Shown here: positions 11,649 to 51,617 of the stretch, one piece after another
Layout: each line of letters starts with the position of its first letter
How positions within the stretch are numbered: the stretch's first letter is position 1
NCBI GenBank assembly: GCA_018302235.1
Contig: JAGVZW010000034.1
Coordinates: forward strand, 1 to 55,514
Direction: 5' to 3'
DNA: 55,514 nt
DNA from: Candidatus Woesearchaeota archaeon
Lineage (GTDB): Archaea; Nanobdellota; Nanobdellia; SCGC-AAA011-G17; GW2011-AR18
The notes under the pieces: model-generated
Told to the model about the DNA's origin: nothing
The model's database searches: none
What the model saw: only the letters and a program-made list of their open reading frames with translations
Program-made: the position numbers and the translations under genes

Positions 11649-12659
11649 ATGAAAATTTGTATCTTTTACACTGCTGCTTTAGGAAATGGTCATAAAAAAT
11701 GTGCAGAGGTTTTAGAAAAAAAATTAAAAGATGGATATGATATTAAACTTATTGATTCGTTAAAAGAATTAAAATTAAATTATTTAATAGGAAATAGTTA
11801 TTTTTTAATTTTAAAATATTTTTCAGGATTTTATGGGAATATATATTTAAATGAAAAAAAATTATTTAAAAAATATTCTATTTTAAAAGATTTTTTTTTA
11901 TATCTCTGTTCTTTTAGATTTAAAAGGATCATTGAAGAAGAAAAACCCGATTTAGTAATCTGCACGCAGGCTTTTCCTTGTGCTGTGTTCTCGAGAATTA
12001 AAAAAAATTATAAGCTATTTGCGGTTATTACTGATTTTCACCTGAATTCTTCTTGGATAAATAAGAATGTAGATTATTATGCTGTATCTTGCAATGAGAT
12101 TAAGAAAAAATTAGAAGAAGAGAATATTGATAAAGATAAGATAAAGGTTACTGGAATACCTGTTGATGTGTTAAATAAAACCTCTAAAAAAAAATATATT
12201 TTAATTATGGGTGGTGGTGCTGGACTAGGCGACATAGAATCTGTGGTTAATAAGTTAAAAGATAACTTTCAACTTAAGGTTGTTGCTGGAAAAAATAAAG
12301 GATTAAAGAAAAGATTAGAGGGAAAGTGTAAGGTTTATGGCTTTGTAGATGATATAGACAATATTTATGCTGAATCTTTTTTAGTTATAACAAAACCTGG
12401 CGGGTTAACTGTATCTGAATTGCTCAATATACAACTTCCTATGATATTATTGGATCCATTACCTGGTCAAGAAGAAAAGAATTTTGAGTACTTAATTAAA
12501 AATAAGATTGCATATAAACTTAATGATGATTTGATTGGATTAATAAATAAAATTATTAGCAGTAATCATGAAAAAATAAAGGACTTTTCAAGGCCTGAGG
12601 CTGCAGTAGAGGTGTTGCATCTCATTAATGACCTTTTAAAGCCCTTCAAAGAAAAATAA
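11649..12659 (+). CDS. glycosyltransferase, MGDG-synthase/UgtP-like (GT28 type)
   Basis: N-terminal GNGHKK, central MGGGAGLG and C-terminal KPGGLTVSE...GQEEKN motifs, as in diacylglycerol glycosyltransferases. Confidence 0.7.
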   Translation: MKICIFYTAALGNGHKKCAEVLEKKLKDGYDIKLIDSLKELKLNYLIGNSYFLILKYFSGFYGNIYLNEKKLFKKYSILKDFFLYLCSFRFKRIIEEEKPDLVICTQAFPCAVFSRIKKNYKLFAVITDFHLNSSWINKNVDYYAVSCNEIKKKLEEENIDKDKIKVTGIPVDVLNKTSKKKYILIMGGGAGLGDIESVVNKLKDNFQLKVVAGKNKGLKKRLEGKCKVYGFVDDIDNIYAESFLVITKPGGLTVSELLNIQLPMILLDPLPGQEEKNFEYLIKNKIAYKLNDDLIGLINKIISSNHEKIKDFSRPEAAVEVLHLINDLLKPFKEK

Positions 12660-12969: not shown

Positions 12970-14043
12970 TTAATCATTGCTAAATTGATCTAATTTTGTT
13001 TCAAAAAAAATTTGGGTGGTTCTTCCCTCATACCCTAGATTTAATTCTTTAAGATTGATTAGTTTTGATTTTTGTAAGTCTTTAATTTTTCTAGAAAATG
13101 TTCTATATGTCTTTTTACCGCCTATTTCTTCATATTCCTTGAATACTTCTAAGACTGTTTTTCCTGAATTTTGTTTTATTAAATCTAATATTTGTTGTGA
13201 TTCTTTGTTTAATTCTTGTATTTTTTTAATTTTGAATTCAGATAGTTTTGAAATTGCTATGTTTGTGTGTTCTTCTAAGATTTTTTTAGATGATTTTGCT
13301 TCGGCTATAATTCCTGATTCTTTCATTAAAAATAACCCGGCTCTAATGTCTTGTAGTTCAAATGTTTTTTTACAGATTTTATAGAATGATTCTTGGTTTA
13401 AAACCCCTGGAAAGAATGCATATCCTTTTCTCTGTGCTAAAATTCCTGTTGTTTCTTCTTCATTATACGGCTCAAAATTTAATAAATCTGGGATTAGTCT
13501 TGATCTAATTCTGTTATCCATATCTGCCATAAATAATTCGTCATTTGTAATCAAAATGATTGTTTTTTTATGAATATCTTCTAATAAAGAATAAATTATT
13601 GATTGATCTTCTAATTTATCTACTTCATCTAACACTATAACTACTGATTTTTTGTTTAATATATTTGCTGCTACTTGTATTAAATCTTCTCCGCTCTTAT
13701 TATGCGTCCAAGAATAATTAATTTGGTGGCATAATTCAGTAATTATTTTAAAGAAAGAATCTTTTTTCCAACAATTTATGTATATTTGGTAGATATTATC
13801 AGTTTCATTTTCTAAATCTCTTAAAACAGATCTTATTGCTGCTGTTTTTCCTATCCCTGGTTGACCTGTGATGATTATATTTCTTCCGTTTCTTTTTTGC
13901 AATAGTGGTTTTATACACTCTGCAATATAATGTTGTTGTGTTTCTCTGTATTTTATTTCTTTTGGCAAATAATCATAATCTAAGGCTGTTTCGTTTTGAA
14001 ATAATGTTTCATTTGATTGTAATATATCTTTGAATAAGGACAT
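12970..14043 (-). CDS. cdc6: Orc1/Cdc6 replication initiator
   Basis: Walker A GQPGIGKT, Walker B VIVLDEVD, C-terminal winged-helix-like region. Confidence 0.9.
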   Translation of the reverse strand: MSLFKDILQSNETLFQNETALDYDYLPKEIKYRETQQHYIAECIKPLLQKRNGRNIIITGQPGIGKTAAIRSVLRDLENETDNIYQIYINCWKKDSFFKIITELCHQINYSWTHNKSGEDLIQVAANILNKKSVVIVLDEVDKLEDQSIIYSLLEDIHKKTIILITNDELFMADMDNRIRSRLIPDLLNFEPYNEEETTGILAQRKGYAFFPGVLNQESFYKICKKTFELQDIRAGLFLMKESGIIAEAKSSKKILEEHTNIAISKLSEFKIKKIQELNKESQQILDLIKQNSGKTVLEVFKEYEEIGGKKTYRTFSRKIKDLQKSKLINLKELNLGYEGRTTQIFFETKLDQFSND

Positions 14044-14175
14044 AATAAATTAGGGTTCGTTTTAATTATAAAGATTATTATGAAAAAGAAAATTAATAAT
14101 TGCAACAAAGAATATCTTCTATCCGTGTATGCGTATTTATATAGTATTGTCCTTCGCCTGGCCCACATGCTAATC

Positions 14176-14508
14176 CTAAAATTCTGGCCGATACGAGCAG
14201 TCTTCTAATATAAATTCATTTGTGCTAAATAACTTACGGTTACAATATTCATCACTAAAATAACCTACTTCTGTATTAAGTTGAGATGCTAAACACCTAG
14301 AATAACCCATTTCTTCACATATCTCTTCTCCATTCATCCTTATACTCCTAAAGTCTGGTATTCTAGATAATATATAATCCTCTGAAACAAAATAACATCC
14401 AGAATAATCAGGTAATTCTTGGGATATGTGGTTCTGTTCTCCTAAAAATCCCATCCTTCCCGTATAGCTAATACCTATTGTTCCTATCATAAGAACAATA
14501 ACAATCAT
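14176..14508 (-). CDS. Cys-rich N-terminally anchored protein family, copy C1 (possibly decaying)
   Basis: Shares G-x-E-I-C...GYSRC(L/F) and later Cys positions with 15093-15482 and 19717-20151. The frame stays open 11 codons further upstream to an SD-positioned ATA (14541). The CC tail survives only as an out-of-frame remnant near 14091-14114. Confidence 0.5.
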   Translation of the reverse strand: MIVIVLMIGTIGISYTGRMGFLGEQNHISQELPDYSGCYFVSEDYILSRIPDFRSIRMNGEEICEEMGYSRCLASQLNTEVGYFSDEYCNRKLFSTNEFILEDCSYRPEF

Positions 14509-14510
14509 AA

Positions 14511-14589
14511 CTAAACTAATGTAAAAATATTTATCTTCTATTTTATCACCTCTAAATTTTTATAAGAAAATTAAGATGAAGATATATAT
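14511..14589. repeat. 79-bp leader repeat, copy 1 (identical to 15485-15563)
   Basis: Base-by-base comparison found no mismatch. Covers the 5-prime leader and promoter region of C1. Confidence 0.9.
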
Positions 14590-14636
14590 TGGAAAAATTC
14601 CGAAAAACATATAAATAATATAATCTTCTTAATATT

Positions 14637-14801
14637 ATGACATCAACTATTGAAACAATACATGAAGATTTATTAGATTTAAAGAAAGATGTTACTTTTA
14701 TTAAAAATATACTTTCTGAAGAATTTGAATTAAGTGATTCTGCTTTTAATGCTTTGAAAAAGGCTAGAGAAACACCAGAATCTGAATATATAGATTTATA
14801 A
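14637..14801 (+). CDS. putative antitoxin of the RelE/ParE module (54 aa)
   Basis: Own translation MTSTIETIHEDLLDLKKDVTFIKNILSEEFELSDSAFNALKKARETPESEYIDL. Its stop overlaps the toxin ATG by 1 nt (TAATG). Confidence 0.55.
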   Translation: MTSTIETIHEDLLDLKKDVTFIKNILSEEFELSDSAFNALKKARETPESEYIDL

Positions 14802-15058
14802 TGACTTATAAAATTAAATTACATCCAGAAGTACATAAATTTATTGAAAAATTGGATCAGAATATAGCAGAAAGAATTAGAAAGCGTTTAAAATTATTAG
14901 AAAATGAACCTTTTAGATATTTAGAACATTATGAAAGCCAAACTTTTTTTAAATTTAGAATAGGCGAATATAGGGCTTTAATAGATGTAGATACAATGCG
15001 ATTTACTATTTTTATTAGAGTATTAGATCACAGAAGTAAAATTTATAAAAGAAATTAA
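14801..15058 (+). CDS. relE: RelE/ParE-family type II toxin
   Basis: 85 aa. FKFRIGEYRALIDVD...IFIRVLDHRSKIY matches the RelE/ParE core pattern (R-x-G-x-YR...hR..vY). Confidence 0.75.
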   Translation: MTYKIKLHPEVHKFIEKLDQNIAERIRKRLKLLENEPFRYLEHYESQTFFKFRIGEYRALIDVDTMRFTIFIRVLDHRSKIYKRN

Positions 15059-15092
15059 AGAAAAATTTATTTTTTACAACAAACAATGCTCT

Positions 15093-15482
15093 CTAACTTA
15101 AGCCTTCCAACATTATATCTCCATTTTCTGGTTCAGTAAATTCTGGATCTAATATTAGATCACATTCATCAGGCACTTCATATGTTTCATCACAAGAAAT
15201 ACTTAAACTAATGTCATCTACATCTTGTAGTTTACCTTGACAACTGCCATCCGTTGAATCAAATGCTCCTTTTCTAAATCTAATATTTGAGAGAAAACAT
15301 CTATTATAATTTAAACTCGTACATATTTCATTTCCTGTTTTTCCACTATAACTAATGCCTGTTGCACTAAGTGCATTCTTATCAATAAATTCACAGTTTC
15401 CTAACATATCTGAATTTTCTTTATTCCAAAAGGCATATCCAGTAAAACCTAAACTTCCTAGAATTAAAATAGCAACAACCAT
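15093..15482 (-). CDS. Cys-rich N-terminally anchored protein family, copy C2 (tail disrupted)
   Basis: Paralog of C1 and C4. Stops at EGLS, and the family tail ...SIVCCKK follows out of frame (15067-15090). Same ATA-for-ATG leader as C1. Confidence 0.5.
   Translation of the reverse strand: MVVAILILGSLGFTGYAFWNKENSDMLGNCEFIDKNALSATGISYSGKTGNEICTSLNYNRCFLSNIRFRKGAFDSTDGSCQGKLQDVDDISLSISCDETYEVPDECDLILDPEFTEPENGDIMLEGLS
15386..15454. repeat. 69-bp coding repeat shared by C2 and C4 (other copy 20028-20096)
   Basis: Near-identical, about 2 mismatches. Encodes GFTGYAFWNKENSD(M/I)LGNCEFI. Confidence 0.85.
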
Positions 15483-15484
15483 AG

Positions 15485-15563
15485 CTAAACTAATGTAAAA
15501 ATATTTATCTTCTATTTTATCACCTCTAAATTTTTATAAGAAAATTAAGATGAAGATATATAT
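15485..15563. repeat. 79-bp leader repeat, copy 2 (identical to 14511-14589)
   Basis: See copy 1. It is followed by one extra TA unit relative to copy 1. Confidence 0.9.
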
Positions 15564-15700
15564 ATTATGGTTAATATTTGAATCTTCTTTTATAATTTTA
15601 TGATCAAACAATCCTAAACTAAGTATAATAACTATAATTTCATTACTTTTATAGAAATAATGAACATAATCTTTTTAAGATAAATAAATACTATTTGTTT

Positions 15701-17080
15701 ATGACTGAAAGAACTATGCGTCTTTTAATTAAAGTACTAAGTAAATTAAAAAAACAAGATAAAGCTGTAATAAAATCATTTGAAAAGAGGTATAAATCTT
15801 TTAAATTACATAAAGATTATATAAATGCAATAATTTTTACTTATTTTGAATTATTAAAAAATAAAGATTCTAAAGGATTAAAAAATGATCTTAAAGAATG
15901 GATTAATAATCTAATTAAAGATTGTTTAGTTCATTATGATTTAGAAAAAGAAAGTAAACTTTTAGATAAACTTTCAGATGAAAAAGAATTGGTCTATAAG
16001 GTACAAAAAAAACTTGAAGACTTATTAAATAATTTGAAGGTTGAACGATTAAGGGAAAAATTATTGGAAAAATATGAATGGATAAAAGAGGTGAATGTTG
16101 AAGAAATATCTAGTTTATTAGAAGAAAATGCGAGTTTACAATTTTCTTTAGTTGCAGAAGAACAAAGAATTTTAACTAACCTCATAGGTTCTTTAGACGG
16201 TTCTGGGGAGTTATATTCTAAGGACATGGAAGTGAAAGTAGAACAACTTTCTGGGATTATATATCAATTAGAAAAGCTTCTTATAGAAGAAAAAAGAAAA
16301 ATTATAGATCCACTTTATAGTATACTGGCTAGATGTTTGTTTAATATTAAGAAAGAAAAAATAACTAGAGAAGATGTGTTAGAAGATATTGAGGCCATGG
16401 TTGATCATTTAGATGCTATAAATTATTTGAATGCGCTTTTAAGTCTTAATGTTGATAGATCTATATTAAAATATGCACAAAGATTAGCTAAAGAGGCAGA
16501 AAAAAATGCTAGAAATGAAGTGGAATCATTAGAACAACAGGTGATTTTGGATTCATTTACTCGATTGTATAACAAAGCTTATTTTAATATTATGCTACAA
16601 AAATTCACAAAAAAGGCTATTGAAACAAATTCTCCTCTTTCATTAATTACGATTGATATTGATAATTTTAAAATAGTGAATGATCTTTATGGACATACTG
16701 TAGGTGATGATGTTATTAAAGGTTTAGTTGAAAAAATTAAACAAACTGTAAGAAGGAAACAAGATTTGCCTTGTAGATACGGCGGAGAAGAATTTTTTAT
16801 TCTTTTGCCGTATGTAAATTTAGAAGGAGCAAAAAAAATTGCTGAAAATATAAAAAAAGGATTTAAAGAATTGAAATTTGAAGTTGAAAGATATGCACAG
16901 CCACCAGAAAACTCTACAATAAAAATTCTGGAAGAGAATAATAAATATTATATTGGTGTTACTATTAGTATAGGAATTGCTGAATATAATAATGAATTGC
17001 CATTGGAGTTTGTAAAGAAAGCTGATGAGTTTTTAATAAAAGCTAAAAACATAGGGAAAGATTGTATAGTCACTCAATAA
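15701..17080 (+). CDS. GGDEF-domain diguanylate cyclase with about 280-aa helical N-terminal domain
   Basis: DSFTRLYNKAYF, IDIDNFKIVNDLYGHTVGDD, RKQD-LPCRY-GGEEF (I-site RxxD five residues before the A-site), SIGIAEY and ADEFLIKAKNIGKD. ATG at 15701 preferred over TTG at 15695. Confidence 0.85.
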   Translation: MTERTMRLLIKVLSKLKKQDKAVIKSFEKRYKSFKLHKDYINAIIFTYFELLKNKDSKGLKNDLKEWINNLIKDCLVHYDLEKESKLLDKLSDEKELVYKVQKKLEDLLNNLKVERLREKLLEKYEWIKEVNVEEISSLLEENASLQFSLVAEEQRILTNLIGSLDGSGELYSKDMEVKVEQLSGIIYQLEKLLIEEKRKIIDPLYSILARCLFNIKKEKITREDVLEDIEAMVDHLDAINYLNALLSLNVDRSILKYAQRLAKEAEKNARNEVESLEQQVILDSFTRLYNKAYFNIMLQKFTKKAIETNSPLSLITIDIDNFKIVNDLYGHTVGDDVIKGLVEKIKQTVRRKQDLPCRYGGEEFFILLPYVNLEGAKKIAENIKKGFKELKFEVERYAQPPENSTIKILEENNKYYIGVTISIGIAEYNNELPLEFVKKADEFLIKAKNIGKDCIVTQ

Positions 17081-17483
17081 GTTCTCTTTTAATTTTAATT
17101 ATAGGTCGTAGATCTCTTATTGATTTTCCAGATTCATCATAAATTACTACAACGCCATTTTTATTATAATAAACGTGGGAAAATGCGGTGTCATACCTTT
17201 GAAATTCCCCTTCTGGTCGAAATTTATAACATTCCCCTTTTTCTTCAAAATAATCATCTATATCTCTAACATCCCATTTTTGGTCTTCTCTAAAAAAATG
17301 AAATTTGTTGCTTTGAAAACCACCTGGTCTAAAATAGAAATAATTTTTACTGGCATATACATAACCAATTCTGTTTTCTCCTGACACAAGACATAAATCG
17401 CGTAAATTATTCTTTTCTAATTCTCTAATAAAATTATCAACCCATATTTCTTTTATAGGTTGTAATTTTTCATCTATTGTCAC
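17070..17483 (-). CDS. P-family protein, copy P1 (137 aa, unknown function)
   Basis: GTG start. The first 18 aa (MTIDEKLQPIKEIWVDNF) and the tail (...I(K/R)(R/K)ELIE) are shared with 17865-18260. The core is divergent but alignable (YFYF, HFFR, YNK-G-VVIY-ESG). Confidence 0.6.
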   Translation of the reverse strand: MTIDEKLQPIKEIWVDNFIRELEKNNLRDLCLVSGENRIGYVYASKNYFYFRPGGFQSNKFHFFREDQKWDVRDIDDYFEEKGECYKFRPEGEFQRYDTAFSHVYYNKNGVVVIYDESGKSIRDLRPIIKIKRELIE

Positions 17484-17540
17484 AAATTATTAGTAGTTTA
17501 TAGATATTTAAATAATTACGAATTATTAAGATATAGATTA
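17429..17540. repeat. 112-bp repeat spanning P1 5-prime coding end and promoter (other copy 18206-18317)
   Basis: Constant offset of 777 bp, 3-4 mismatches by eye. Confidence 0.85.
17507..17514 (-). promoter_or_regulatory. candidate TATA box for leaderless P1 transcript
   Basis: tatttaaa on the minus strand, centred about 27 nt upstream of the GTG start. Conserved in the P2 copy. No SD present. Confidence 0.4.
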
Positions 17541-17565
17541 GGATATATTATTTAAAAAAGAAAAG

Positions 17566-17864
17566 TTATTTTTTACAACAGATTACACCTTCTATACGAC
17601 TACTAGCTCCAAAATATGGTTCAACATCTGGTTGATCATTTGTTTCATATATGCCAGGTTCAACGATTATTTTATCTGGGCCGACTCATGTTACAACAAC
17701 CTCTTTGTCTTGAATATTACCATCACAAGTTTGAGTATTTTAAAAATAAACTATTTCTCCTCTTACACTTGAAGCAAAACTTCTTTGATAACTTAAATCA
17801 TTACAAATTTGATTTCCTGTTGTTCCATAACTTGATAGGTCTATTCCTAGCAAAAATAGTGTAG
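17566..17864 (-). pseudogene. Cys-rich family copy C3, pseudogene
   Basis: Own translation: ...LGIDLSSYGTTGNQICNDLSYQRSFASSVRGEIVYF*NTQTCDGNIQDKEVVVT*VGPDK...SSRIEGVICCKK*. Lacks the signal-anchor N-terminus and abuts the P2 stop. In-frame TAA (17740-17742) and TGA (17686-17688). The conserved Cys in Y-x-R-C is replaced by Ser. Confidence 0.8.
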
Positions 17865-18260
17865 TTACTCGATAAGTTCTTTTCTAATTCGAACGATTGG
17901 TTTTGTATCTATCTTTATACCACTTTCTGAATAATATATTACAATATTTCCTTTATTATAAAAAATGGTAGATAAATGTGATTGGTACATTTCTAATTTT
18001 CCCTCTATATATAATGCAGAATTTTTTATTCTTTGAACATTCCATAATCTGTCTTGGTATAATTTTCCTCTAAAAAAATGTAAAACAAATATAGCATGAT
18101 CATCATAAAAAGTAGCATTACCTATCTCAAAATAATAATAATTATTATCTACAAAAACTGGATATTGGCATCCTAATTCAGAAACTCTTTTTAAATTTGA
18201 ATGATTAAAATTATCAACCCATATTTCTTTTATAGGTTGTAATTTTTCATCTATTGTCAC
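17865..18260 (-). CDS. P-family protein, copy P2 (131 aa, unknown function)
   Basis: See P1. GTG start, with the same upstream TATA-like element. Confidence 0.6.
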   Translation of the reverse strand: MTIDEKLQPIKEIWVDNFNHSNLKRVSELGCQYPVFVDNNYYYFEIGNATFYDDHAIFVLHFFRGKLYQDRLWNVQRIKNSALYIEGKLEMYQSHLSTIFYNKGNIVIYYSESGIKIDTKPIVRIRKELIE

Positions 18261-18317
18261 AAATTATTAGTAGTTTATAGATATTTAAATAATTGTGAAT
18301 TATTAAGATATATATTA
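18206..18317. repeat. 112-bp repeat spanning P2 5-prime coding end and promoter (other copy 17429-17540)
   Basis: See the P1 copy. Confidence 0.85.
18284..18291 (-). promoter_or_regulatory. candidate TATA box for leaderless P2 transcript
   Basis: Same element and spacing as for P1. Confidence 0.4.
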
Positions 18318-18327
18318 TAATGTATAG

Positions 18328-18420
18328 TTTATTACCTCTTAAATTTTATAAGAAAATTAATGTGAAGATATATATATATATATATATATATATAACGGTT
18401 TTAAATTTCTTCTATGTTAT
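18328..18420. repeat. orphan copy of the C4 leader/promoter plus the last 5 codons of gene 20211-20444
   Basis: Aligns to 20151-20230 apart from TA-tract length and about 3 substitutions (SD gaggtga becomes gaggtaa). No Cys-rich ORF follows it. Confidence 0.8.
18368..18394. repeat. (TA)n microsatellite, 27 nt
   Basis: Uninterrupted alternating AT run. The homologous tracts are about 13 nt at 20192-20204, 9 nt at 14582-14590 and 11 nt at 15556-15566. Confidence 0.9.
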
Positions 18421-18509: not shown

Positions 18510-19220
18510 ATGCAATTAAGTAAATTAGAAAACAAAATATATGAAGGTTTAAAAAAGAATAAGATTCCTGTATTTAAATCTAAAGACCTGTGTATTTTGT
18601 TTAATATTGATAAAATAAAGGCATATAATTTAATTAAATCCTTAAAAAGAAAAGATATTATTAAGAATGTTGGAAAAGGATTTTTGGCTTTTAAAGATGT
18701 TAATGAATTTATTATAGGACAAAATTTAAATTATCCTTGTTATCTTTCTTTTTTATCAGCGTTAAATTATTATGCATATACTGATCAATTACCTAAAAAA
18801 ATATACTATGTGACTACTAAATATTCCAAAGAAATTAATAATTTTAAATATATTACTTTTGCAAAAAATAAATTTTTTGGTTATATTAAATTTGGGGATT
18901 TGATTATAGCTGAAAAAGAAAAGGTATTTATAGATTCTTTACTTTATCCTAAATATTCTGGTGGGATAAAAGAAATAATTAAATGTTTTAATGTGTCTAT
19001 AAAAGAATTAGATAAAAAAAAATTAATAGATTATGCTTATAAAACTAAAAATAAAGCTCTTTTGAGAAGGTTGGGTTTTATTTTAGAAATGTTGAAATTT
19101 AATGAAAATATTTTAAAAAAACTTAGAAAAAATACAGGCAATGGATATGAATTATTAGATCCTGATTTAAAGAAAAAAAATAATTTTAATAAAAAATGGA
19201 TGTTAGATATTAATTGTTAA
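18510..19220 (+). CDS. AbiEi-like antitoxin/transcriptional regulator (type IV TA)
   Basis: N-terminal wHTH-like segment (LSKLENKIYEGLKK...FKSKDL...AYNLIKSLKRKDIIKNVGKGFLAF). Followed 1 nt later by an AbiEii-like remnant. Confidence 0.55.
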   Translation: MQLSKLENKIYEGLKKNKIPVFKSKDLCILFNIDKIKAYNLIKSLKRKDIIKNVGKGFLAFKDVNEFIIGQNLNYPCYLSFLSALNYYAYTDQLPKKIYYVTTKYSKEINNFKYITFAKNKFFGYIKFGDLIIAEKEKVFIDSLLYPKYSGGIKEIIKCFNVSIKELDKKKLIDYAYKTKNKALLRRLGFILEMLKFNENILKKLRKNTGNGYELLDPDLKKKNNFNKKWMLDINC

Positions 19221-19221
19221 G

Positions 19222-19715
19222 ATGATAAACATAACAGAATTGGCTAAAATAAAGGAAGATAGAAGAACTAATTTATATTATGAAGAAAAAGAATATTTAC
19301 AATATATATTTTTATATGCTATTTCTAAATATGCAATAGATTTTGTATTTAAAGGAATAGAAAAAAGGTAAATAATACAATTAGTAAAGTTATTCCTCAA
19401 TTATTTTCTGATGTTCCATTATTTATTTTGATAATTTTAGATGAAAAAGAAATTTTTGCAGAAAAAATAAGGGCTTTAGTAAGTAGATCAGAAGCGAGAG
19501 ACTTGTATGATGTTTGGATATTATTAAATAAAAAAGTTGAAATTGATAAAAAACTTATTTTAGAAAAACTAAAGGAAGAAAATAAGAGATTATCTGATTT
19601 GAAATTACCTTCTAAGGAAGAGTATACTAATAATTTAAAACAATTAGTTTCTTTTGTCCCTTCTTATGAGCAAGTCAAAAAAGAGGTTTTAGAGCTTATT
19701 AAAAAAATAAAATAA
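19222..19715 (+). pseudogene. AbiEii/DUF1814-type nucleotidyltransferase toxin, internally deleted and frameshifted
   Basis: N-terminal fragment MINITELAKIKEDRRTNLYYEEKEYLQYIFLYAISKYAIDFVFKG then premature stop. The C-terminal fragment, in another frame, has EIFAEKIRALVSRSEARDLYDVWILL, as in AbiEii. The nucleotidyltransferase core between them is missing. Confidence 0.6.
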
Positions 19716-19716
19716 A

Positions 19717-20151
19717 TTATCTTTTACAACAGATTACTCCATCAAATCTTAGTTTTGAAGATTTATCACTAGCAATTCCTATAAATTCATTAGAGCCTGC
19801 TTGCATACAGTTTGTGACTGGACTAAATATTAGGTCTACGCAATCCTCTAAATAATTATCCATTATAACATAAGGTTTGTTACCAGTACAAGATCCATCC
19901 ATTGAACTAAAATAAGTATCAATATTTGTAATTTGTGTAGCAAAGCATCTACTATAACCAAATTCAATACACATATCATTACCCGTTCTAAGCTCAGATG
20001 AACTATCATAATCATTAGGTGAATCTATAAATTCACAGTTTCCTAATATATCTGAATTTTCTTTATTCCAAAAGGCATATCCAGTAAAACCTAAGCCGCC
20101 TAGAAATAAAATAGCAATAATAGATATTACTAAAATTATTTTATTATCCAT
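19717..20151 (-). CDS. Cys-rich N-terminally anchored protein family, copy C4 (intact: SD, ATG, CCKR tail)
   Basis: gaggtgataaaATG start, signal-anchor LVISIIAILFLGGLGFTGYAF, 6 spaced Cys plus C-terminal ...GVICCKR. Confidence 0.7.
   Translation of the reverse strand: MDNKIILVISIIAILFLGGLGFTGYAFWNKENSDILGNCEFIDSPNDYDSSSELRTGNDMCIEFGYSRCFATQITNIDTYFSSMDGSCTGNKPYVIMDNYLEDCVDLIFSPVTNCMQAGSNEFIGIASDKSSKLRFDGVICCKR
20028..20096. repeat. 69-bp coding repeat shared by C4 and C2 (other copy 15386-15454)
   Basis: See 15386-15454. Confidence 0.85.
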
Positions 20152-20230: not shown

Positions 20231-20444
20231 CTTTTGTAGGTATTATCATTCTTAAAGATAATCCTAATTTTAGAATTGCAGATAAGATTGCCATATGTTC
20301 TTTTCCTGTACCAGAATAAAGATTTAGAGCAACTTCAGTATCTTTTATTTTTTCTTTTAAATTTTTTATAATTTCTTCTCTAATAGAAATGATAAATGCT
20401 ATAGTTTTTAAAATTAATGTTGTGACAATATAATTTTTGCTCAA
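20211..20444 (-). CDS. hypothetical protein (77 aa)
   Basis: ORF only. LNLYSGTGKEHMAILSAILKLG is loosely reminiscent of Rossmann/CARF-type TGGTK loops, but the protein is too short to call. Its last 5 codons are duplicated at 18400-18420. Confidence 0.35.
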   Translation of the reverse strand: MSKNYIVTTLILKTIAFIISIREEIIKNLKEKIKDTEVALNLYSGTGKEHMAILSAILKLGLSLRMIIPTKDNIEEI

Positions 20445-20510: not shown

Positions 20511-20756
20511 ATGGGTCAAGCAGAGATAAAAGATGTGTTAGAAAAGACGAAAAAATGGATGTTAAGTAGAGAGATAGCAGAATTGGCTGGTTTATCTTTG
20601 GGTTCTGTGCAGGCTGGATTATCGCGAATGATAAAATTTGGTGAAGTTGAGAGTAGACCTGCTAGGGATGTTATTTTGGATAAAACAAGATTGAAGAGCT
20701 TATGTCCTGCCATGGCTTATAAATTAAGAGAAGATTATTATGAAGAAGAAAATTGA
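20511..20756 (+). CDS. small winged-helix DNA-binding protein (81 aa)
   Basis: HTH-like LSREIAELAGLSLGSVQAGLSRMIKFGEV. Visibly higher GC than the surrounding island. Confidence 0.55.
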   Translation: MGQAEIKDVLEKTKKWMLSREIAELAGLSLGSVQAGLSRMIKFGEVESRPARDVILDKTRLKSLCPAMAYKLREDYYEEEN

Positions 20757-21694
20757 GATTCACCTTCTATTTCTTTAAGTTTTTTTCTTATTTTATCTGA
20801 TAATTTTAATTCATTTAATAATTCTTTATATCTGTTTCTTATTGTAACTTCTGTAACTCCAGCTACATCTGCGACCTCTCTTTGTGTTCTTTTTTCATTA
20901 TTAATTAATGCTGCAACATATAATGAAGCTGCTGCAATTCCTGTTGGACCTCTGCCAGATGTAAGTTCTGCTTTTCTAGCATCATTAAGTATATCTACTG
21001 CCTTAGATTGTGTTTTTGCTGATAATTTTAGGGCTGAAACAAATCTTGGAAGATAATCTACTGGGTTACTAGGAAGGATTTTTATGCCTAATTCTCTAGT
21101 TATAAATCTATATGTTCTTCCAACTTCTTTTTTATCCATTCCGGATGCTTCAGATAATTCATCTAATGTTCTTGGTACTTCGTGTCTACGACACGCTGCA
21201 TATAAAGCGCCAGCAACAACAGATTCCATTGAACGACCCCTAACTAAACCCCTTTGTACAGCAGAATGATAAATTCTTGCTGCTTCTTCCTCGACAGATT
21301 TTGGGAGTTTTAAATAAGAAGAGACTCTTTTTAATTCTGCAAGAGCTAATTTTAAATTTCTTTCAATGGCTGTTGATATTCTATGCTGCCATTTTCTTAA
21401 TCTAAAATATTTATTTTTGCCTTTAGCACTTAATTGATATATTTCGCCTTTTTGACCTATATCTGTACCTAATCCTTTGTCATACTTTGTAAATGTCATG
21501 GGGGCGCCTGTTCTTCTTCTTTTAGATTCTTCATCAGAAAATTCTCTCCATTCTTGGCCAAAATCGATCATTTTTTCTTCAATAACTAGACCGCAATCTC
21601 TACAAATTGCTTCTCCTTTTTCTTTTTGAAATAATAGATTAGAACCCCCACATTCTGGGCATTTTTTAATATAATCTCTCATTTTTAGCTCCAT
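20738..21694 (-). CDS. tfb: transcription initiation factor TFB (TFIIB)
   Basis: N-terminal Zn ribbon CPECGG...CRDCG and two cyclin-like repeats (RGRSMESVVAGALYAACR, TQREVADVAGVTEVTIRNRYKEL). Confidence 0.95.
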   Translation of the reverse strand: MELKMRDYIKKCPECGGSNLLFQKEKGEAICRDCGLVIEEKMIDFGQEWREFSDEESKRRRTGAPMTFTKYDKGLGTDIGQKGEIYQLSAKGKNKYFRLRKWQHRISTAIERNLKLALAELKRVSSYLKLPKSVEEEAARIYHSAVQRGLVRGRSMESVVAGALYAACRRHEVPRTLDELSEASGMDKKEVGRTYRFITRELGIKILPSNPVDYLPRFVSALKLSAKTQSKAVDILNDARKAELTSGRGPTGIAAASLYVAALINNEKRTQREVADVAGVTEVTIRNRYKELLNELKLSDKIRKKLKEIEGESQFSSS

Positions 21695-29261: not shown

Positions 29262-30437
29262 ATGTTTAATAAAATAGGACAAAAAGAAGAATTAGCTGGA
29301 AAAGCAGTGATGATTATAATTCTAGTTATTGCTTTTCTTATAGCCTTATATATTTTGTTTTTGCCACCAGAAGAGAGAAGAGATCTGCTTAATCAAGAAG
29401 AACCAACTGGAACACCTAAAACAGGTACTACATTTATAGAATTATTTTCTGAATCACCTGGCAAACTTTATCCACTCAAGGAGTATATTACAACAAAAAA
29501 TATTCCTTCTATAGATCTATATACAAAAACAACTATTCAAGCAGATACACTAAGTCAATCTTTATTTATTTCAAAATCTTTATTCTCTAATAATCCACAA
29601 ACAATATATTTTTCATTAGATTCTCAAGATAAAGCTACCCTTTTTTTTTCTTTAACTGGTGAAAATTCAGGTACATTGAGAATATATATAAATAACAATC
29701 TTTTTTTTTCTGAAAAAATATCAGAAAATGATGTCAAATTAATTAATATTCCTACTAGGTTTTTAAAACAAGAAAATTCTTTATATTTTGAGGTATCATC
29801 TCCTGGTTTATTTTTTTGGAAAACAAATGAAATGCATTTAAAAGATATTGGTATAAGACAAGAAATAGAATCAATAAATATAAAAGAACAGCGTTTATTT
29901 GTTTTTACGAATCAAGAAATTAGTTCACTAAAAACTGCAAAATTATCTTTTTATCAATTTTGTGAAAAAGATATAGGTGGTCATTTAACAATACTATTGA
30001 ATAATATGGAATTATTTAATGCTAATCTAAAATGTATTAATACTGCTACAAATATAGATATTCCTAAGGATATATTAAAAAATGAAAATATATTACAATT
30101 TGAAATAGATAAAGGAGAATTCTCTTTTAATCAAGTAAAAATACAAACAGATACAAAGGAACAAACGTTTCCGTATTATACATTTGAATTGAGTAGTACA
30201 GAATTTAATAAAATAGAAAATTCTACATTAAAAATAACTATGGTTGATGATGGGAAATTAAAAAGTGCCTTATTTTATTTGAACAGTGAGAAATTATCTC
30301 TAAAAACTAGAGACGTAAATTATAATTTTTATGTGCAAGATTATTTAGAATATGGAACAAACTATTTAAGAATTGAACCACTGTCACCGTTTGAAATTAT
30401 TAGTTTAAAAATAACCGCAGAGGAAAACAATGACTGA
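29262..30437 (+). CDS. N-terminally anchored surface protein with three repeated beta-rich modules
   Basis: TM at residues about 14-34. Three similar modules (GTLRIYINNNLFF...NSLYFEV, GHLTILLNNMELF...NILQFEI, SALFYLNSEKL...NYLRIEP). Confidence 0.6.
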   Translation: MFNKIGQKEELAGKAVMIIILVIAFLIALYILFLPPEERRDLLNQEEPTGTPKTGTTFIELFSESPGKLYPLKEYITTKNIPSIDLYTKTTIQADTLSQSLFISKSLFSNNPQTIYFSLDSQDKATLFFSLTGENSGTLRIYINNNLFFSEKISENDVKLINIPTRFLKQENSLYFEVSSPGLFFWKTNEMHLKDIGIRQEIESINIKEQRLFVFTNQEISSLKTAKLSFYQFCEKDIGGHLTILLNNMELFNANLKCINTATNIDIPKDILKNENILQFEIDKGEFSFNQVKIQTDTKEQTFPYYTFELSSTEFNKIENSTLKITMVDDGKLKSALFYLNSEKLSLKTRDVNYNFYVQDYLEYGTNYLRIEPLSPFEIISLKITAEENND

Positions 30438-31782
30438 TGTTGAAAAGAGTCATACTACTACATTTCTTGGAAAATTATTAAAGTTTATTTTTGGTTTTGT
30501 TATATTTATTGTGTTTGTGTTGGCTATTGTTTTTTTGATTAGATTATATGGCACTGGGGGTGGGGCTGTAGCCTTAGAGCATGGAAGTGTAGCAGCAAAA
30601 GAATTTGGTTTACCTGTACTAAAACAAGTTGGTCTTTATGATGCTTATTTGGCTTTTTTTGATCCTACAAAATTATGGGAAAAAGAGATTAATTCTGATA
30701 TAGAAAAGAACGAATATAGACCAGAAGCTGGTGTAAGAATTACAAAATTAGAACCACGTTCATCTTTTTTTGAGGAAGAAAAACCAATAGTTGTTGATGC
30801 TTATATTGATGCTGAGGCTATAGTTAATGATGTTGAAATTTATTTTTATTGTAAATTAGATGATTACCCTGCAATTGGAAAAACAGAGTATATTCCTGCT
30901 GAGGTTTCTTCACTAAATTCTAAAAATAATGCTGCTTTTTTGAAAAAAAATCAGGGCTTAGAAAGAATTAGAGCTACATGTAAGTTTCAAAGCGGTATGA
31001 AGATTCCAAAAGATAATACATTAGGAACACCACAGGTGGTGACATCTAAACAAGTTGAAATAATAGCTAGATTTCCTTTTACTACATTAGCCTCACATAA
31101 AACATATATGCTAAATAAAGAAGAATATGAAAGATTAATCTCAATAAATCAAAATCCATTTGAATATTTTAAGATTTCAGATCCACAATTAAATTATGAT
31201 AGAACAATGAAGTCTAGAACAACAGATGGACCTCTACAATTGGGAATAAGTACTTATCAACAACAACCATTTACTGAAGATATGGCTTATACTATAGCTG
31301 TTGGAATGAAGGATAATCAGGGCTGGGGTATTGGTTCTATGAGATATTTAAATTATTTAGATTTAAAATTACCAGATCCCTATTTTATTTTAGAAAGTGA
31401 TTCATCTTATCCAAATAAAAATTTAATGGATGATACTTGTGCTTTTTACTTTACCGGAGAGATAGATAATATGGGGGTTAGCGGAATAAGATACAAGGTT
31501 TATAGATTAAAAGATGAATATCTTTCAAGGGTTAATGTTGATTGTTCTAAGGATGCTTTAAAGGATGTAAAAGATTTAACTACAGAAGAATGCATTAAAC
31601 TTTATGGGAGCCAACAAATATTTACATGTGATTTTCAGATACCAGAGTTGCCTGCTGAGGAAGGAATATTTGCTGACTTTTTCTTTACAGAAGCATCTTA
31701 TATTTTTGAGGTAAAAAAATCTGCAGCAATAAATATTAGAAAATACCACGATGTGCCAACTACTGGCCCTTTAATAACATAA
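30430..31782 (+). CDS. N-terminally anchored surface protein (450 aa)
   Basis: One N-terminal TM. Overlaps the previous gene by 8 nt. Confidence 0.6.
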   Translation: MTDVEKSHTTTFLGKLLKFIFGFVIFIVFVLAIVFLIRLYGTGGGAVALEHGSVAAKEFGLPVLKQVGLYDAYLAFFDPTKLWEKEINSDIEKNEYRPEAGVRITKLEPRSSFFEEEKPIVVDAYIDAEAIVNDVEIYFYCKLDDYPAIGKTEYIPAEVSSLNSKNNAAFLKKNQGLERIRATCKFQSGMKIPKDNTLGTPQVVTSKQVEIIARFPFTTLASHKTYMLNKEEYERLISINQNPFEYFKISDPQLNYDRTMKSRTTDGPLQLGISTYQQQPFTEDMAYTIAVGMKDNQGWGIGSMRYLNYLDLKLPDPYFILESDSSYPNKNLMDDTCAFYFTGEIDNMGVSGIRYKVYRLKDEYLSRVNVDCSKDALKDVKDLTTEECIKLYGSQQIFTCDFQIPELPAEEGIFADFFFTEASYIFEVKKSAAINIRKYHDVPTTGPLIT

Positions 31783-31813
31783 CTTTTTTATATCTTTGAT
31801 TTATATTTACCTT

Positions 31814-32701
31814 ATGAAAATATTATTATTTATATTATTATTATTTTTAATGTCTTGTGCAACTAAACAACCAATAAACGAAGGAAGGGATGTTAGTTTG
31901 TCTATTATAGAATATCCTGACGGAGAGATATATCCTGAAATTGATACTTTTAAATTAAGAATAAAGATAACAAATCAAGCAAAAAATGATATACAGGGCA
32001 TTCTGTGTGTCTCAGATTCGTTATCTGACAATTTTGGGGGTATTTCTTCGCATGAATGTCAAGATGTATATTTAGAAAAAGGAGAACTTATAGATGAAAA
32101 AATAATTCCAAGAAGTCAAGATTTTCTCTTTCCAGAGGCGAAAAGGGCTACATATTCTTATATTGCGCCTAACAAGGATATTTCTGAATATATATCTTTG
32201 ACTACTACTTTTCAATATGAGATCGAATCAATTTCATCTACTACAATTTGTGTTTCAAATCCATATTTAGATGACCCGTATTGTAATAATAAAGAGATAA
32301 TAAATAATATAAAAAGAGATAATACTCCTTTGATAGTCTCTAAAATAGAAAAATCCACAAATACTTTATCTGAAAACGAAATAAAATTAAACCTTAAATT
32401 CTATTTAGAATTGGAGGAAAATGGATATTTATTATCAAAAAATTCTTTATTTTCACAGGAAAAAACATCCTATCCTGAGATTGAATTTAGGGCTATATTA
32501 AACGAAAATGAAGAATTGACTTGCACTTCATTGGAGAATAACATTTTTAAATTCAAAGAAGATCAAAATATTATTCAATGTTCAATAATATTACCAATTA
32601 AACAAGATTTTATTCAATTAAAATTGGATACTTATCTTGGTTATGGTTTTATGTTAAGAACTGAACCAATACAAATAAAATTAAAAAAGGAGGAATATTA
32701 A
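31814..32701 (+). CDS. lipobox-containing surface protein
   Basis: MKILLFILLLFLMSCATKQ (signal plus Cys). CARDB-like pattern FKLRIKITNQAKNDI. Start reset to the ATG at 31814. Confidence 0.6.
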   Translation: MKILLFILLLFLMSCATKQPINEGRDVSLSIIEYPDGEIYPEIDTFKLRIKITNQAKNDIQGILCVSDSLSDNFGGISSHECQDVYLEKGELIDEKIIPRSQDFLFPEAKRATYSYIAPNKDISEYISLTTTFQYEIESISSTTICVSNPYLDDPYCNNKEIINNIKRDNTPLIVSKIEKSTNTLSENEIKLNLKFYLELEENGYLLSKNSLFSQEKTSYPEIEFRAILNENEELTCTSLENNIFKFKEDQNIIQCSIILPIKQDFIQLKLDTYLGYGFMLRTEPIQIKLKKEEY

Positions 32702-33652
32702 ATGAGAAAATATATCATTTATATAACATTTTTACTCTCTATGTTATTTATTACTGCTGCCAGTTGTGGTGGTGATAGGTCGTCTTCAGAAACAAAATTT
32801 TCGTGGATTGGTGGTACTGATGGAATTATAGCTTCTTTTATACCAGATAGTCCGCCCTTGTCTGTTTTAGGTGGTGGGGTAGATCCATTTACAATAGATG
32901 TACAACTTGAAAATAAGGGTGAATATAATATTAAACCTAATGAGGCCTTAGTTACATTACAAGGCTTTGATTACACATCTTTTTCAATTTCAGCGCCATC
33001 TCAATATATAACAGAGGGTCTGATAGGTAAAACGGAACAAGGAGATGTTATAGTAGAGGGGGATCAATCTTCAGTTTCCTATGAAGCTAATTATGTTGGT
33101 AGTTCAACATTTAGTCAGGAGTTTACAATTACAGCAAATTATTGTTATAAATATCAAACAAAAACAGCAGCTATCTTATGTTTAAAACAAATCCCTAAGG
33201 AAAGAACGAGAGAAACAGAATGTGCTATAGAAAATCAACAGCTACAATTTGGCTCTTCTTCTGCTCCGGTACAAATAACTTCTTTTTCACAAAGATCAAC
33301 TGGAAAAAATGAGATATCTTTTACATTTAAAATAGAAAATAAAGGACAAGGCAATATCTATAAACCTAAGTTTGTTACAAAGGGGGAATGTAGAGATGAT
33401 AAAACATATGCTGATGAGGTATTTGTAAGATTGAATTTTGAATCGGGTAATGTACCAATAAAATGTGCTGCTTTGGATAATGCAAACGAAGGGCATATAA
33501 AATTATCACAGGGCTTAAAACAAATGTCCTGTAGTATAGACACAACAAATTTACAAACATCTGCTTTTGAAAAATCTTTATCTGTTACAATAGAGTATAC
33601 GTATAAAGAATCTGCGTCACAATCAATTACTATTGAAAAATCTTATGAATAA
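32702..33652 (+). CDS. lipobox-containing surface protein, paralogous architecture to 31814-32701
   Basis: LFITAASCGGD lipobox. FTIDVQLENKGEYNI and ISFTFKIENKGQGNI patterns. Starts the base after the upstream stop. Confidence 0.6.
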   Translation: MRKYIIYITFLLSMLFITAASCGGDRSSSETKFSWIGGTDGIIASFIPDSPPLSVLGGGVDPFTIDVQLENKGEYNIKPNEALVTLQGFDYTSFSISAPSQYITEGLIGKTEQGDVIVEGDQSSVSYEANYVGSSTFSQEFTITANYCYKYQTKTAAILCLKQIPKERTRETECAIENQQLQFGSSSAPVQITSFSQRSTGKNEISFTFKIENKGQGNIYKPKFVTKGECRDDKTYADEVFVRLNFESGNVPIKCAALDNANEGHIKLSQGLKQMSCSIDTTNLQTSAFEKSLSVTIEYTYKESASQSITIEKSYE

Positions 33653-49858: not shown

Positions 49859-50821
49859 TTAAATATTAATTGAAGATTCCATTTCTTTTAAAAGTTCTTT
49901 TGGATTTTGTTCTTGTATCTCAGTAATTGTAAATTCTGTTCTATCGAACATTTCGTTTCTTTTTGTGCGTCCCTTTAAAATATACTGTTTGCCCATTGTT
50001 TGTGACTTCACTATATTAAAATCTTCTGGGTTTTGACCCAAAATTTTTTCTGCTTGATCTCTAAAACAAACAGCTCTTATATTTGCTGTACCATCATCAA
50101 TAAACATGTTTAATATTGGGATTTGTTTTGGTGAAATACTGCCGTGATTTGAACATTCATAATGATCTTCTAAAAAATTTACTTTTTTATTGCAGACTGG
50201 GCAGGCTTGGTAGAATCTTGGTTCAAATAATTGAACTATTGTACCTAATATTTCTGCATTCTCATTATCTTTAAGATCTTTAATTTGTTTTTTTTCCATT
50301 CTAGATATTTTTATCTCTTCAATTGAAATCCCAGGGGGATTTATTTCTAGGGATGATTTTGAGCCTAAATGCAACTCCTTAAAGCCATTGTTTTCCTTAG
50401 AATATGCATTTTTAATTGATACTATATCTAATTCCTTTAAATTTTGAATTTTGTTTATTAGATTTTCATCCCATATGGTTAATCTAAGAGAGCCGGTTTC
50501 ATCTGCAATTATAATATTAGCTACTTTACCTGCTCTTGTTGATGTAGAAAAACTCCTTATTTCAAATATATTTGTTACCTTTCCTATAGTGTTTACAGAA
50601 TTTAAACCTGGAATAATTTCATTAATTTTTAGATCTTTATTTTGTATTTCAAAGAGATTAACACCCAGTTCATTTGCTATTATATGTGCGGCACCCTCTT
50701 TTGATATTAAATCTTGAAGTTCTATTATTTTTTCTTGTATTTTTGTTTCTATCTCTTGTTTTGATATATTTTTTGTAGAAGAAATTTTTTCTATGATTGT
50801 ATCATAACTTAAACGAAACAT
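49859..50821 (-). CDS. RPA-like single-stranded DNA-binding protein (OB folds plus Zn finger)
   Basis: AAHIIANELGV N-terminal helix, OB pattern GKVANIIIADETGSLRLTIWD, CPVC...C..H finger. Confidence 0.75.
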   Translation of the reverse strand: MFRLSYDTIIEKISSTKNISKQEIETKIQEKIIELQDLISKEGAAHIIANELGVNLFEIQNKDLKINEIIPGLNSVNTIGKVTNIFEIRSFSTSTRAGKVANIIIADETGSLRLTIWDENLINKIQNLKELDIVSIKNAYSKENNGFKELHLGSKSSLEINPPGISIEEIKISRMEKKQIKDLKDNENAEILGTIVQLFEPRFYQACPVCNKKVNFLEDHYECSNHGSISPKQIPILNMFIDDGTANIRAVCFRDQAEKILGQNPEDFNIVKSQTMGKQYILKGRTKRNEMFDRTEFTITEIQEQNPKELLKEMESSINI

Positions 50822-50855
50822 AAATTGATTTTTTTATTCTTTTATAAAAAGATTT

Positions 50856-51617
50856 TTATTCATTAAGGAGTGGATTATATTTTTTTTGAAGTTCTTTTTT
50901 TAAATCTATTTCTAGCCTTAAATTATTTAATTCAAAATATAACAGGTTATTTTTAAAAAAATAGGTTGTTTTTGGGTATTTTTCTTTTATTTTTGCTTCA
51001 CATTTTGTCTGTGGTTGATTTATGCAGTTTTCAGAAAATATTAAATATAAATCATAATATATATTAAAATCTGGTGTTTTGTAGCTTATTTCTGGGAAAT
51101 ATGTATAAAAAATTGTTAGATTTGTTAATGAATTATTTAATATTATTGAATCAAATATAATTTTTTCCTCTGTTATTTCTTTTATTTTTAATTTCTCTGA
51201 TTCTAAAAGTTTTCTATTAAAATAATATTTTTCTAAGAAAATATTAAAACTTGCTGTATATAATTTTATTTTTTTATCAAATTCTTCTTTAAATTCTTTT
51301 TCTGGGTTTAATTCTTGACATGTATTCCATATAATATATGTTTCTTCTAAATTATCTATACTGCATTTTTGGGCTGCATATCCTCCATTGGTTTCTATTT
51401 GTTCTTCTATGTCTTCTATTGTTTGTTTTATTGCTTCATTTAAGAATAAATTTATTTTTAATTCATCTGTATATGTTTTTTCTATATTGCTAGAGGATTC
51501 TCCAATATTTACCTCTAATCTTTCTTTATTTTGGGATATTATGAAGGCTAGTGATGTAAGAAATATTAATGTTAGAATTATTATTAACGGTGTAAACATA
51601 CCTTTTTTATTTAACAT
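50856..51617 (-). CDS. pilin-like protein with class III signal peptide (253 aa)
   Basis: MLNKKG|MFTPLIIILTLIFL: basic residues, then Gly, then a hydrophobic helix. Confidence 0.55.
   Translation of the reverse strand: MLNKKGMFTPLIIILTLIFLTSLAFIISQNKERLEVNIGESSSNIEKTYTDELKINLFLNEAIKQTIEDIEEQIETNGGYAAQKCSIDNLEETYIIWNTCQELNPEKEFKEEFDKKIKLYTASFNIFLEKYYFNRKLLESEKLKIKEITEEKIIFDSIILNNSLTNLTIFYTYFPEISYKTPDFNIYYDLYLIFSENCINQPQTKCEAKIKEKYPKTTYFFKNNLLYFELNNLRLEIDLKKELQKKYNPLLNE

Follow-up and report, generated by a model that had tools for sequence, protein, structure and literature searches.

The closest solved relative of the gene described here is PleD of Caulobacter vibrioides (1w25, 2v0n and 2wb4; HMMER E = 4e-24), a GGDEF-domain diguanylate cyclase which is regulated by two REC domains. 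The gene itself lies at positions 15701-17080 on the forward strand of a 55,514-nucleotide stretch of DNA assigned to a Candidatus Woesearchaeota archaeon (contig JAGVZW010000034.1, assembly GCA_018302235.1), and we refer to this whole stretch as the window. Its open-reading frame (ORF) encodes a protein of 459 amino acids (aa) in which an orphan helical N-terminal domain is followed by a stalk helix and a GGDEF domain, and cyclic di-GMP (c-di-GMP) is the predicted product. The cyclase and PleD share an identical DLPCRYGGEEF segment, the RxxD inhibitory site (I-site), the metal ligands, the guanine-recognition pair and K442 of PleD. They differ in that the cyclase has an orphan helical domain where PleD has its REC domains, N383 and a Lys where PleD has R390 and R446, an extra 16-residue hairpin insertion, and an archaeal host.

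A second group of bacterial enzymes, SiaD of P. aeruginosa (7e6g), DgcB (6ttr) and the WspR stalk (3i5c), resembles the cyclase in the long helix that runs straight into the GGDEF domain, which by analogy would imply dimer control through a coiled coil. None of these has a counterpart to the ~250 aa that precede the stalk in the cyclase, and no SiaABC-like partner-switch genes are found near it. All 20 of the 20 named-cyclase equivalog models in NCBIfam scored under their cutoffs (PleD 148 against 474 bits), including SiaD, where the 118 bits obtained are far under the cutoff of 290, and the protein is therefore no ortholog of SiaD or of another named cyclase but an orphan architecture. The palm-type nucleotide cyclase fold is also common to the Hypr GGDEF enzymes (GacA) and to the Cas10/mCpol palm cyclases. 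These make alternative nucleotide signals, some of which are used in defence. However, the signature Ser of Hypr enzymes is lacking in the cyclase (D336), its motif is GGEEF where Cas10 has GGDD, and no CARF or SAVED partner accompanies it, with PADLOC negative.

Reports of GGDEF proteins in archaea have been treated with caution. Galperin et al. 2018 accepted only a GGDEF protein of Methanocella arvoryzae, which comes from a complete genome, and flagged matches in metagenome-assembled genomes (MAGs) as possible contamination (PMC5847659); archaeal MAG matches were treated in the same way in a survey of HD-GYP domains (Galperin & Chou preprint) and by Romling 2022. Braun et al. 2021, on the other hand, mentioned without analysis >300 archaeal GGDEF BLAST hits, many of them in DPANN and Asgard lineages (PMC8646023). 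The M. arvoryzae protein RCIX2274 (CAJ37382) has the bacterial-type architecture REC-PAS-PocR-GGDEF-HD-GYP with its own HD-GYP domain, from which the cyclase is set apart by description as a stand-alone enzyme with an orphan putative sensor in a DPANN lineage. Nearer still is HLD11116.1, a GenBank MAG entry named ‘diguanylate cyclase [Candidatus Nanoarchaeia archaeon]’, which shares a 90% cluster with the ortholog P0002 described below, and comes from a different lineage whose flanking genes are only ~65-75% identical in DNA to those of the window. The automatic GenBank annotation of this ortholog and the hits of Braun et al. mean that the family, and the existence of such hits, were already known. 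An earlier reading of the window from its sequence alone had taken c-di-GMP signalling to be close to absent from archaea, which needs qualifying for the genes, given the BLAST hits and the named ortholog; what such hits had lacked was authentication. Our literature search found no publication on HLD11116.1 or on an archaeal diguanylate cyclase so named, and what the present analysis adds is the authentication of the gene, its orphan architecture, a conserved gene trio and a pattern of gene flow.

An intact GGDEF domain behind an orphan helical region

The C-terminal 175 aa of the protein form a canonical GGDEF domain (aa 282-454; 16544-17062, + strand). In line with the complete domain claimed by the sequence-only reading, aa 282-454 matched PF00990 of Pfam with E = 2e-38, at a score of 132 bits where the cutoff is 23.8, and the match took in positions 2-160 of the 161 in the profile. 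The match to TIGR00254 of NCBIfam had E = 3e-41 (141 bits against a cutoff of 37.4). AlphaFold2 (AF2) modelled aa 283-459 at a predicted local distance difference test score (pLDDT) >90, and Foldseek superposed this part on the GGDEF domains of DosC, WspR and Marinobacter with template modelling (TM) scores of 0.87-0.90 and root-mean-square deviations of 2.2-2.7 Å, the model possessing the five-stranded beta-sheet palm fold.

Residues were mapped to PleD numbering through the HMMER alignment and an alignment of 12 GGDEF domains (A2). A2 has 28 columns that do not vary among its 12 domains, and the cyclase keeps every one of them, no catalytic or metal-binding residue being misaligned or absent. 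Each motif named in the sequence-only reading was recovered. The DxLTxLxN motif of PleD is represented by D284, T287 and N291, and D319-I-D321 aligns with the metal-binding D327/I328/D329. The Mg2+ ligands D319 and E363 (PleD D327 and E370) stand in invariant columns, as do K324, which corresponds to the transition-state Lys K332 of PleD, and both members of the guanine-recognition pair N327 and D336 (PleD N335 and D344), which are nine residues apart. The primary inhibitory I-site, R352-K-Q-D355 (16754-16765, +; PleD R359xxD362), is followed by LPCRY and then by the active-site motif G361-G-E-E-F365 (16781-16795, +; PleD G368GEEF372), itself invariant in A2, which places the RxxD five residues upstream of GGEEF as the sequence-only reading had described. 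The conserved Arg ahead of the active site is also kept (R359-Y-G361GEEF365, against R366-Y-G368GEEF372 in PleD), and the phosphate-binding K442 of PleD is K449. The match is far above chance, and a regular expression for R-Y-G-G-E-E-F occurs a single time across the six frames of the window.

The Asp kept at the position of PleD D344 (D336) means that the protein is not a Hypr cGAMP-type enzyme, and an Asp rather than a Ser at this position points to GTP as the substrate that would be recognised. Both a Hypr and a degenerate GGDEF identity were ruled out by the residues aligned in A2 (D336, the full GGEEF and the metal ligands).

The N-terminal orphan domain (aa 1-252; 15701-16456, +) is predicted to be all-alpha, and may serve as a sensor or dimerisation module. 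An exhaustive phmmer search of 1.84 billion representative proteins matched this part to its own ortholog only, and Pfam at E ≤ 1 gave no meaningful match, the sole hit (POTRA, E = 0.08) being dismissed. AF2 predicts helices only, at a pLDDT of 34-60 that allowed no assignment to a fold, which agrees with the earlier failure to recognise any sensor domain here. Inspection of aa 1-252 by eye showed neither a long hydrophobic stretch nor an N-terminus resembling a signal peptide. A long stalk helix then leads into the GGDEF domain (aa 253-282; 16457-16546, +; AF2 helix H253-282). Because the top Foldseek matches are stalk-GGDEF proteins (SiaD 7e6g, GCN4-WspR 3i5c and DgcB 6ttr; E = 2e-16 to 5e-13), and because the NCBIfam SiaD model already aligns from aa 202 (aa 202-455, E = 4e-34), the comparison supports, by analogy, a dimeric enzyme that would be under coiled-coil control. 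Taken together, we infer from the sequence a soluble, catalytically competent diguanylate cyclase, very probably active and feedback-inhibited, with an orphan putative sensor domain.

An alternative TTG start exists at 15695, yet it is unnecessary, since the ortholog of a second lineage keeps the first ATG too (MTERTM against MSEKTM). The region upstream of the gene has otherwise diverged between the two lineages, and its sole conserved block is AACATAATCTTTTTAA (15664-15679, +), 22-37 nucleotides before the ATG. This block is a putative archaeal B recognition element (BRE)/TATA-like element, which would imply a leaderless or short-leader mRNA. A Sigma-70 promoter and terminator scan returned counts equal to the shuffle expectation, the model being a bacterial one that is not relevant to an archaeal host.

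Archaeal context, selection and gene flow

The default suspicion of specialists for archaeal MAG matches (Galperin & Chou preprint; Romling 2022) is an assembly or binning artefact in which a bacterial GGDEF gene has been misjoined to archaeal DNA, and the homologs of the GGDEF domain beyond the two lineages that carry the cyclase, all of which are bacterial or unnamed, would fit this. In an assembly collection the identical protein is listed in 37 index blocks, from which 24 contigs were read and three loci inspected (L001-L003). The identical cyclase was present on 24 of the 24 contigs. These are up to 167 kb long and carry the naming styles of different assemblers (scaffold_ and k141_), whilst the three inspected loci come from three samples, two from ENA and one from JGI, including ANAN16-1_SAMN03842436 scaffold_8 (139 kb) and JGI 3300002104. 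In each of L001, L002 and L003 the genes to the left of the cyclase are FtsZ, aIF5A and Orc1/Cdc6, and the longest, L001, extends on the right to transcription factor B (TFB), S8e and EF-1beta. Further archaeal markers on the same contigs are L44e, S27e, aIF2alpha, GINS, Pelota, RPA and a tRNA-splicing endonuclease. The same junctions therefore recur across samples and assemblers, contrary to what a misjoin would predict.

The composition of the gene is likewise that of its neighbours, which extends the AT-rich style and the archaeal setting (Orc1/Cdc6, TFB) noted from the letters alone. The GC content of the window is 26% throughout; the cyclase gene has a GC of 0.258 against a mean of 0.266, a GC at third codon positions (GC3) of 0.148 against 0.160, and a codon-usage cosine of 0.962, among the highest in the window. 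An ortholog, P0002, is encoded in a second Nanoarchaeia lineage (locus L004), whose proteins are deposited as ‘Candidatus Nanoarchaeia archaeon’, a class of Nanobdellota within DPANN. P0002 is 89% identical to the cyclase without gaps, and its gene directly adjoins the orc1/cdc6 of that lineage, that is, at the same chromosomal site. The ratio of nonsynonymous to synonymous substitution (dN/dS) between the two orthologs is 0.25 overall, 0.24 in the N-terminal part and 0.25 in the GGDEF part, and the cyclase is kept under purifying selection in two lineages.

Contamination and chimerism are effectively excluded by these recurrent archaeal loci with their markers, by the native GC, GC3 and codon usage, which are indistinguishable from those of the archaeal neighbours, and by a diverged, syntenic ortholog under selection beside orc1. 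No bacterial protein, moreover, exceeds ~41% identity over the whole domain. The chimera that the sequence-only reading had asked to see excluded is thus extremely improbable, and we are confident that this is a genuine archaeal GGDEF gene. For one archaeal GGDEF the locus removes the doubt about contamination, through archaeal neighbours in several samples, native composition and selection in two lineages, and it supplies a candidate gene that could be cloned to ask whether c-di-GMP is made by any archaeon.

The origin of the domain was sought in a database of 5.8 billion proteins, where all matches apart from two orthologous clusters were limited to the GGDEF domain. These reached at most ~41% identity over the whole domain, and the named ones were all bacterial. 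Among GTDB representative genomes, the 80 top-ranking loci were also all bacterial, with ≤40% identity. A neighbour-joining (NJ) tree of 197 domains, the phylogeny suggested from the sequence alone, was star-like and named neither a donor nor a supported sister group: the archaeal pair sits on a branch of 0.27 joined by internal branches of 0.002-0.01, and its distances to bacterial domains have a median of 0.64, the same as those of bacterial domains from one another. The long branch, the near-zero internal branches and the equal medians imply an old acquisition or fast evolution, with no donor that can be named. IMG/VR held no full-length relative of the cyclase, and no integrase or transposase was found among the called genes of the inspected loci. 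An origin from a mobile element or virus was rejected on these two results.

Gene flow between the two archaeal lineages is more readily traced. We compared the window with L004 by sliding-window DNA identity, and found 61-80% identity up to ~13000 and then, in a block at 13000-18400 (L004 8780-12810), 84-94% over orc1 and 88-96% over the cyclase and two small genes that follow it. Synonymous divergence (dS) shows the same step, being 0.9-2.4 in five flanking core genes (FtsZ, aIF5A, TatD, M50 and MGDG synthase), 0.53 in orc1, 0.235 in the cyclase, and 0.074 and 0.064 in the genes for the small proteins of 137 and 131 aa. This step in dS and identity implies that the block was exchanged between the lineages much later than their divergence, probably in several events.

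A predicted c-di-GMP circuit and its possible partners

We consider it likely that this is a bona fide DPANN gene for a diguanylate cyclase which makes c-di-GMP. If it works as PleD, WspR, SiaD and DgcB do, the protein would dimerise through both its orphan N-terminal domain and the stalk helix (aa 253-282). A signal or partner sensed by the N-terminal domain may set the register of the stalk, which would bring two GTP-Mg2+-loaded GGDEF domains face to face, and the facing domains would condense two GTP into c-di-GMP, with product bound at the RKQD I-site limiting the output. The gene would have been taken from bacteria long ago and since adapted to a 26%-GC genome.

Partners of such a circuit were looked for in ~75 kb of the genome, made up of the window plus ~10 kb of flanking DNA at either end (L086 and L087). 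No EAL, HD-GYP or PilZ domain was present in the precomputed Pfam matches of the called genes over this range, and a six-frame motif search for PilZ, MshEN, EAL and HD-GYP signatures gave nothing credible, which agrees with the earlier observation that no EAL, HD-GYP or PilZ partner was visible in the window. Rfam applied to the window, L086, L087 and L004 returned only a tRNA and no c-di-GMP riboswitch, and a 763-aa T2SSE ATPase just past the window had no T2SSE_N/MshEN match at E ≤ 1.

Several results weigh against c-di-GMP synthesis by the protein. Across the ~75 kb neither turnover nor a receptor is evident, as EAL, HD-GYP, PilZ and MshEN domains and GEMM riboswitches are all missing, and according to reviews no archaeon has yet been found to contain c-di-GMP (PMC10249747). 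The domain also deviates in small ways from the canonical one: R446 of PleD is K453, a conservative change that is also found in a Rickettsia PleD (A2), NRR after the wide turn has become NKA, and the secondary I-site Arg of PleD (R390) is N383. A lineage-specific insertion of ~16-18 residues (aa 399-416; 16895-16948, +) lies in a beta-hairpin of the GGDEF domain where all bacterial domains of A2, and PleD, have a gap. Finally, the low confidence of the N-terminal model makes the regulatory mechanism one of analogy.

An alternative is that the domain makes another product (for example cGAMP), hydrolyses nucleoside triphosphates like GdpP/YybT, or mainly binds or scaffolds c-di-GMP through its I-site. 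The want of a phosphodiesterase or receptor nearby, the departures from the canonical domain (NKA, GKD and the insertion of 16 residues) and a host in a domain of life where c-di-GMP has never been seen would all be accommodated by this, yet the Hypr signature Ser is absent and D336 kept, and the protein has the full GGEEF, the two metal ligands and the phosphate-binding Lys, in contrast to degenerate receptor-type GGDEFs, whilst a pure receptor would have no other evident source of c-di-GMP to bind. We therefore regard such activities as unlikely. The lack of self-directed receptor or turnover genes in the ~75 kb could instead reflect cross-domain manipulation, in which the c-di-GMP of an episymbiotic archaeon targets a bacterial host or neighbour, a suggestion also in keeping with a small-genome DPANN from groundwater and with the small secreted Cys-rich proteins encoded close to the cyclase (below). 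The cyclase gene, however, has no linked device for export or delivery, and the suggestion is entirely speculative and very unlikely to be correct. If the protein is, as we favour, a c-di-GMP synthase of the archaeon, then, with no known partner close by, one must ask what reads or degrades the signal.

At the right-hand end of the window lies a run of genes without Pfam matches (437, 121, 160, 323 and 253 aa as called on the contig, then 1031 and 244 aa; 49859-54721, - strand, continuing into L086 85-8656). Next come a T2SSF-like protein (E = 0.01) and the 763-aa T2SSE ATPase, the latter with a ~380-aa unassigned N-terminal region. Together these genes probably form a locus for a surface appendage resembling a type IV pilus.

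On the same archaeal contig as the cyclase, ~2.2-4.1 kb upstream of window position 1, is a gene for a 620-aa long RelA/SpoT homolog (L087 4604-6466, -) with HD_4, RelA_SpoT (E = 1e-40), TGS and ACT domains. Enzymes of (p)ppGpp metabolism are regarded as rare in archaea (PMC10249747). With this homolog on the contig of the cyclase, the organism may have imported two ‘bacterial’ nucleotide-messenger systems, <20 kb apart. Other bacterial-type genes amid the archaeal core are those for prolipoprotein diacylglyceryl transferase (LGT; L087 2676-3389) and an MGDG-synthase-like glycosyltransferase (window 11649-12659). Both fit the mosaic gene content for which DPANN genomes are known. Elsewhere in the window, four consecutive genes (391, 450, 301 and 316 aa; 29262-33652, +) have no family assignment; with Pfam at E ≤ 1 one of the first two has a weak, sub-cutoff BcsB-like match (E = 0.0075) and the other none, and the last two have no precomputed Pfam match.

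The island between orc1/cdc6 and TFB

The cyclase lies in a variable island that spans orc1/cdc6 to TFB and is rich in toxin-antitoxin genes. Its left archaeal anchor is the replication initiator Orc1/Cdc6 (12970-14043, -; Pfam AAA_22, Cdc6_lid and Cdc6_C, syntenic in L004), and its right anchor is TFB (20738-21694, -; PF00382 E = 2e-47, and PF08271). Between them are an 85-aa ParE-type toxin with an upstream 54-aa putative antitoxin (14637-15058, +; PF05016 E = 9e-7), which is absent from L004, and a 236-aa AbiEi antitoxin with an AbiEii remnant of 95 aa (18510-19715, +; PADLOC AbiEi E = 5e-52, AbiEii E = 5e-20). Together with three anchored Cys-rich paralogs these make up the island of toxin-antitoxin modules and secreted-protein cassettes that the sequence-only reading had recognised.

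Immediately after the cyclase come the two small genes on the opposite strand. The first encodes an orphan protein of 137 aa (17070-17483, -) and is convergent with the cyclase gene, overlapping its 3' end by 11 nucleotides; the second encodes a 131-aa paralog (17865-18260, -; 38% identity, E = 3e-26), which is also present in L004. In the database of 5.8 billion proteins the 137-aa protein forms two clusters only, both from the cyclase-bearing lineages, and relatives of either gene are found only in these two lineages, where they always accompany the cyclase. Neither protein has a Pfam or PADLOC match. The AF2 model of the 137-aa protein is mostly beta (pLDDT 57), and Foldseek found no fold match for it (best E = 0.5). 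In L004 the cargo of the island differs, with an NTP_transf_2 gene and DUF2683, whilst all three genes of the trio (the cyclase and those for 137 and 131 aa) are kept.

This constancy of the trio amid toxin-antitoxin cargo that varies by lineage, in an island full of toxin-antitoxin and Abi genes, would fit a conflict or defence module, in which the cyclase would raise a nucleotide alarm upon infection and the 137- and 131-aa proteins would act as effectors. The recent exchange between lineages (dS 0.06-0.24, where the five flanking genes have about 1 or more) and the dN/dS of 0.8-1.1 in the small proteins are consistent with it. However, a dN/dS near 1 here is based on very few substitutions, and the trio is known from two lineages only, which deprives its linkage of statistical weight. 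PADLOC-DB 2.0 matched none of the three trio proteins, neither the cyclase nor its two constant neighbours, and only the neighbouring AbiEi/AbiEii were recognised, so that the defence-type role raised in the sequence-only reading found no backing there. The small proteins lack a recognisable effector or sensor fold, their genes are on the opposite strand and hence form no operon with the cyclase, and no full-length relative of the cyclase is found on viral contigs. RxxD feedback is typical of homeostatic signalling cyclases such as PleD and WspR, and the cyclase has such a site. We consider a defence function unlikely.

If the cyclase does make c-di-GMP, as we favour, the circuit might operate with no canonical bacterial reader or eraser, using instead a new class of receptor, for which the beta-rich 137- and 131-aa paralogs are the best candidates, and with the N-terminal domain as a new sensor tied to symbiosis. 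We hold this to be improbable in its entirety. If true, Archaea would here have their first working c-di-GMP pathway, one that combines a single part borrowed from bacteria with inventions specific to the lineage.

The two paralogs have an identical 18-residue N-terminus (MTIDEKLQPIKEIWVDNF) despite their overall identity of 38%, and their genes have in common a 126-nucleotide 5' block with 94% DNA identity (window 17429-17554 and 18206-18331), including an identical hairpin with a 9-bp stem within codons ~8-16 of both genes. This likeness points to gene conversion or to a 5' regulatory element that both genes have. The three small Cys-rich proteins (110-144 aa) are also paralogous, each with an N-terminal hydrophobic anchor (14176-14508, 15093-15482 and 19717-20151, all -), and share 5'/upstream modules of ~100-120 nucleotides (repeat families D1 and D3). 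They have no Pfam or PADLOC match, and are absent from the assembled part of the L004 island, which ends at a contig break.

The island also varies between near-identical contigs. In the window AbiEii is truncated by a 250-bp deletion at 19355/19356, leaving the remnant at 19428-19715, whilst in L001 and L002, which are otherwise 99.98-100% identical to the window, it is intact (247 aa; L001 13522-14265). A second indel of ~180 bp separates the window from L001 and L002 near 20381-20384.

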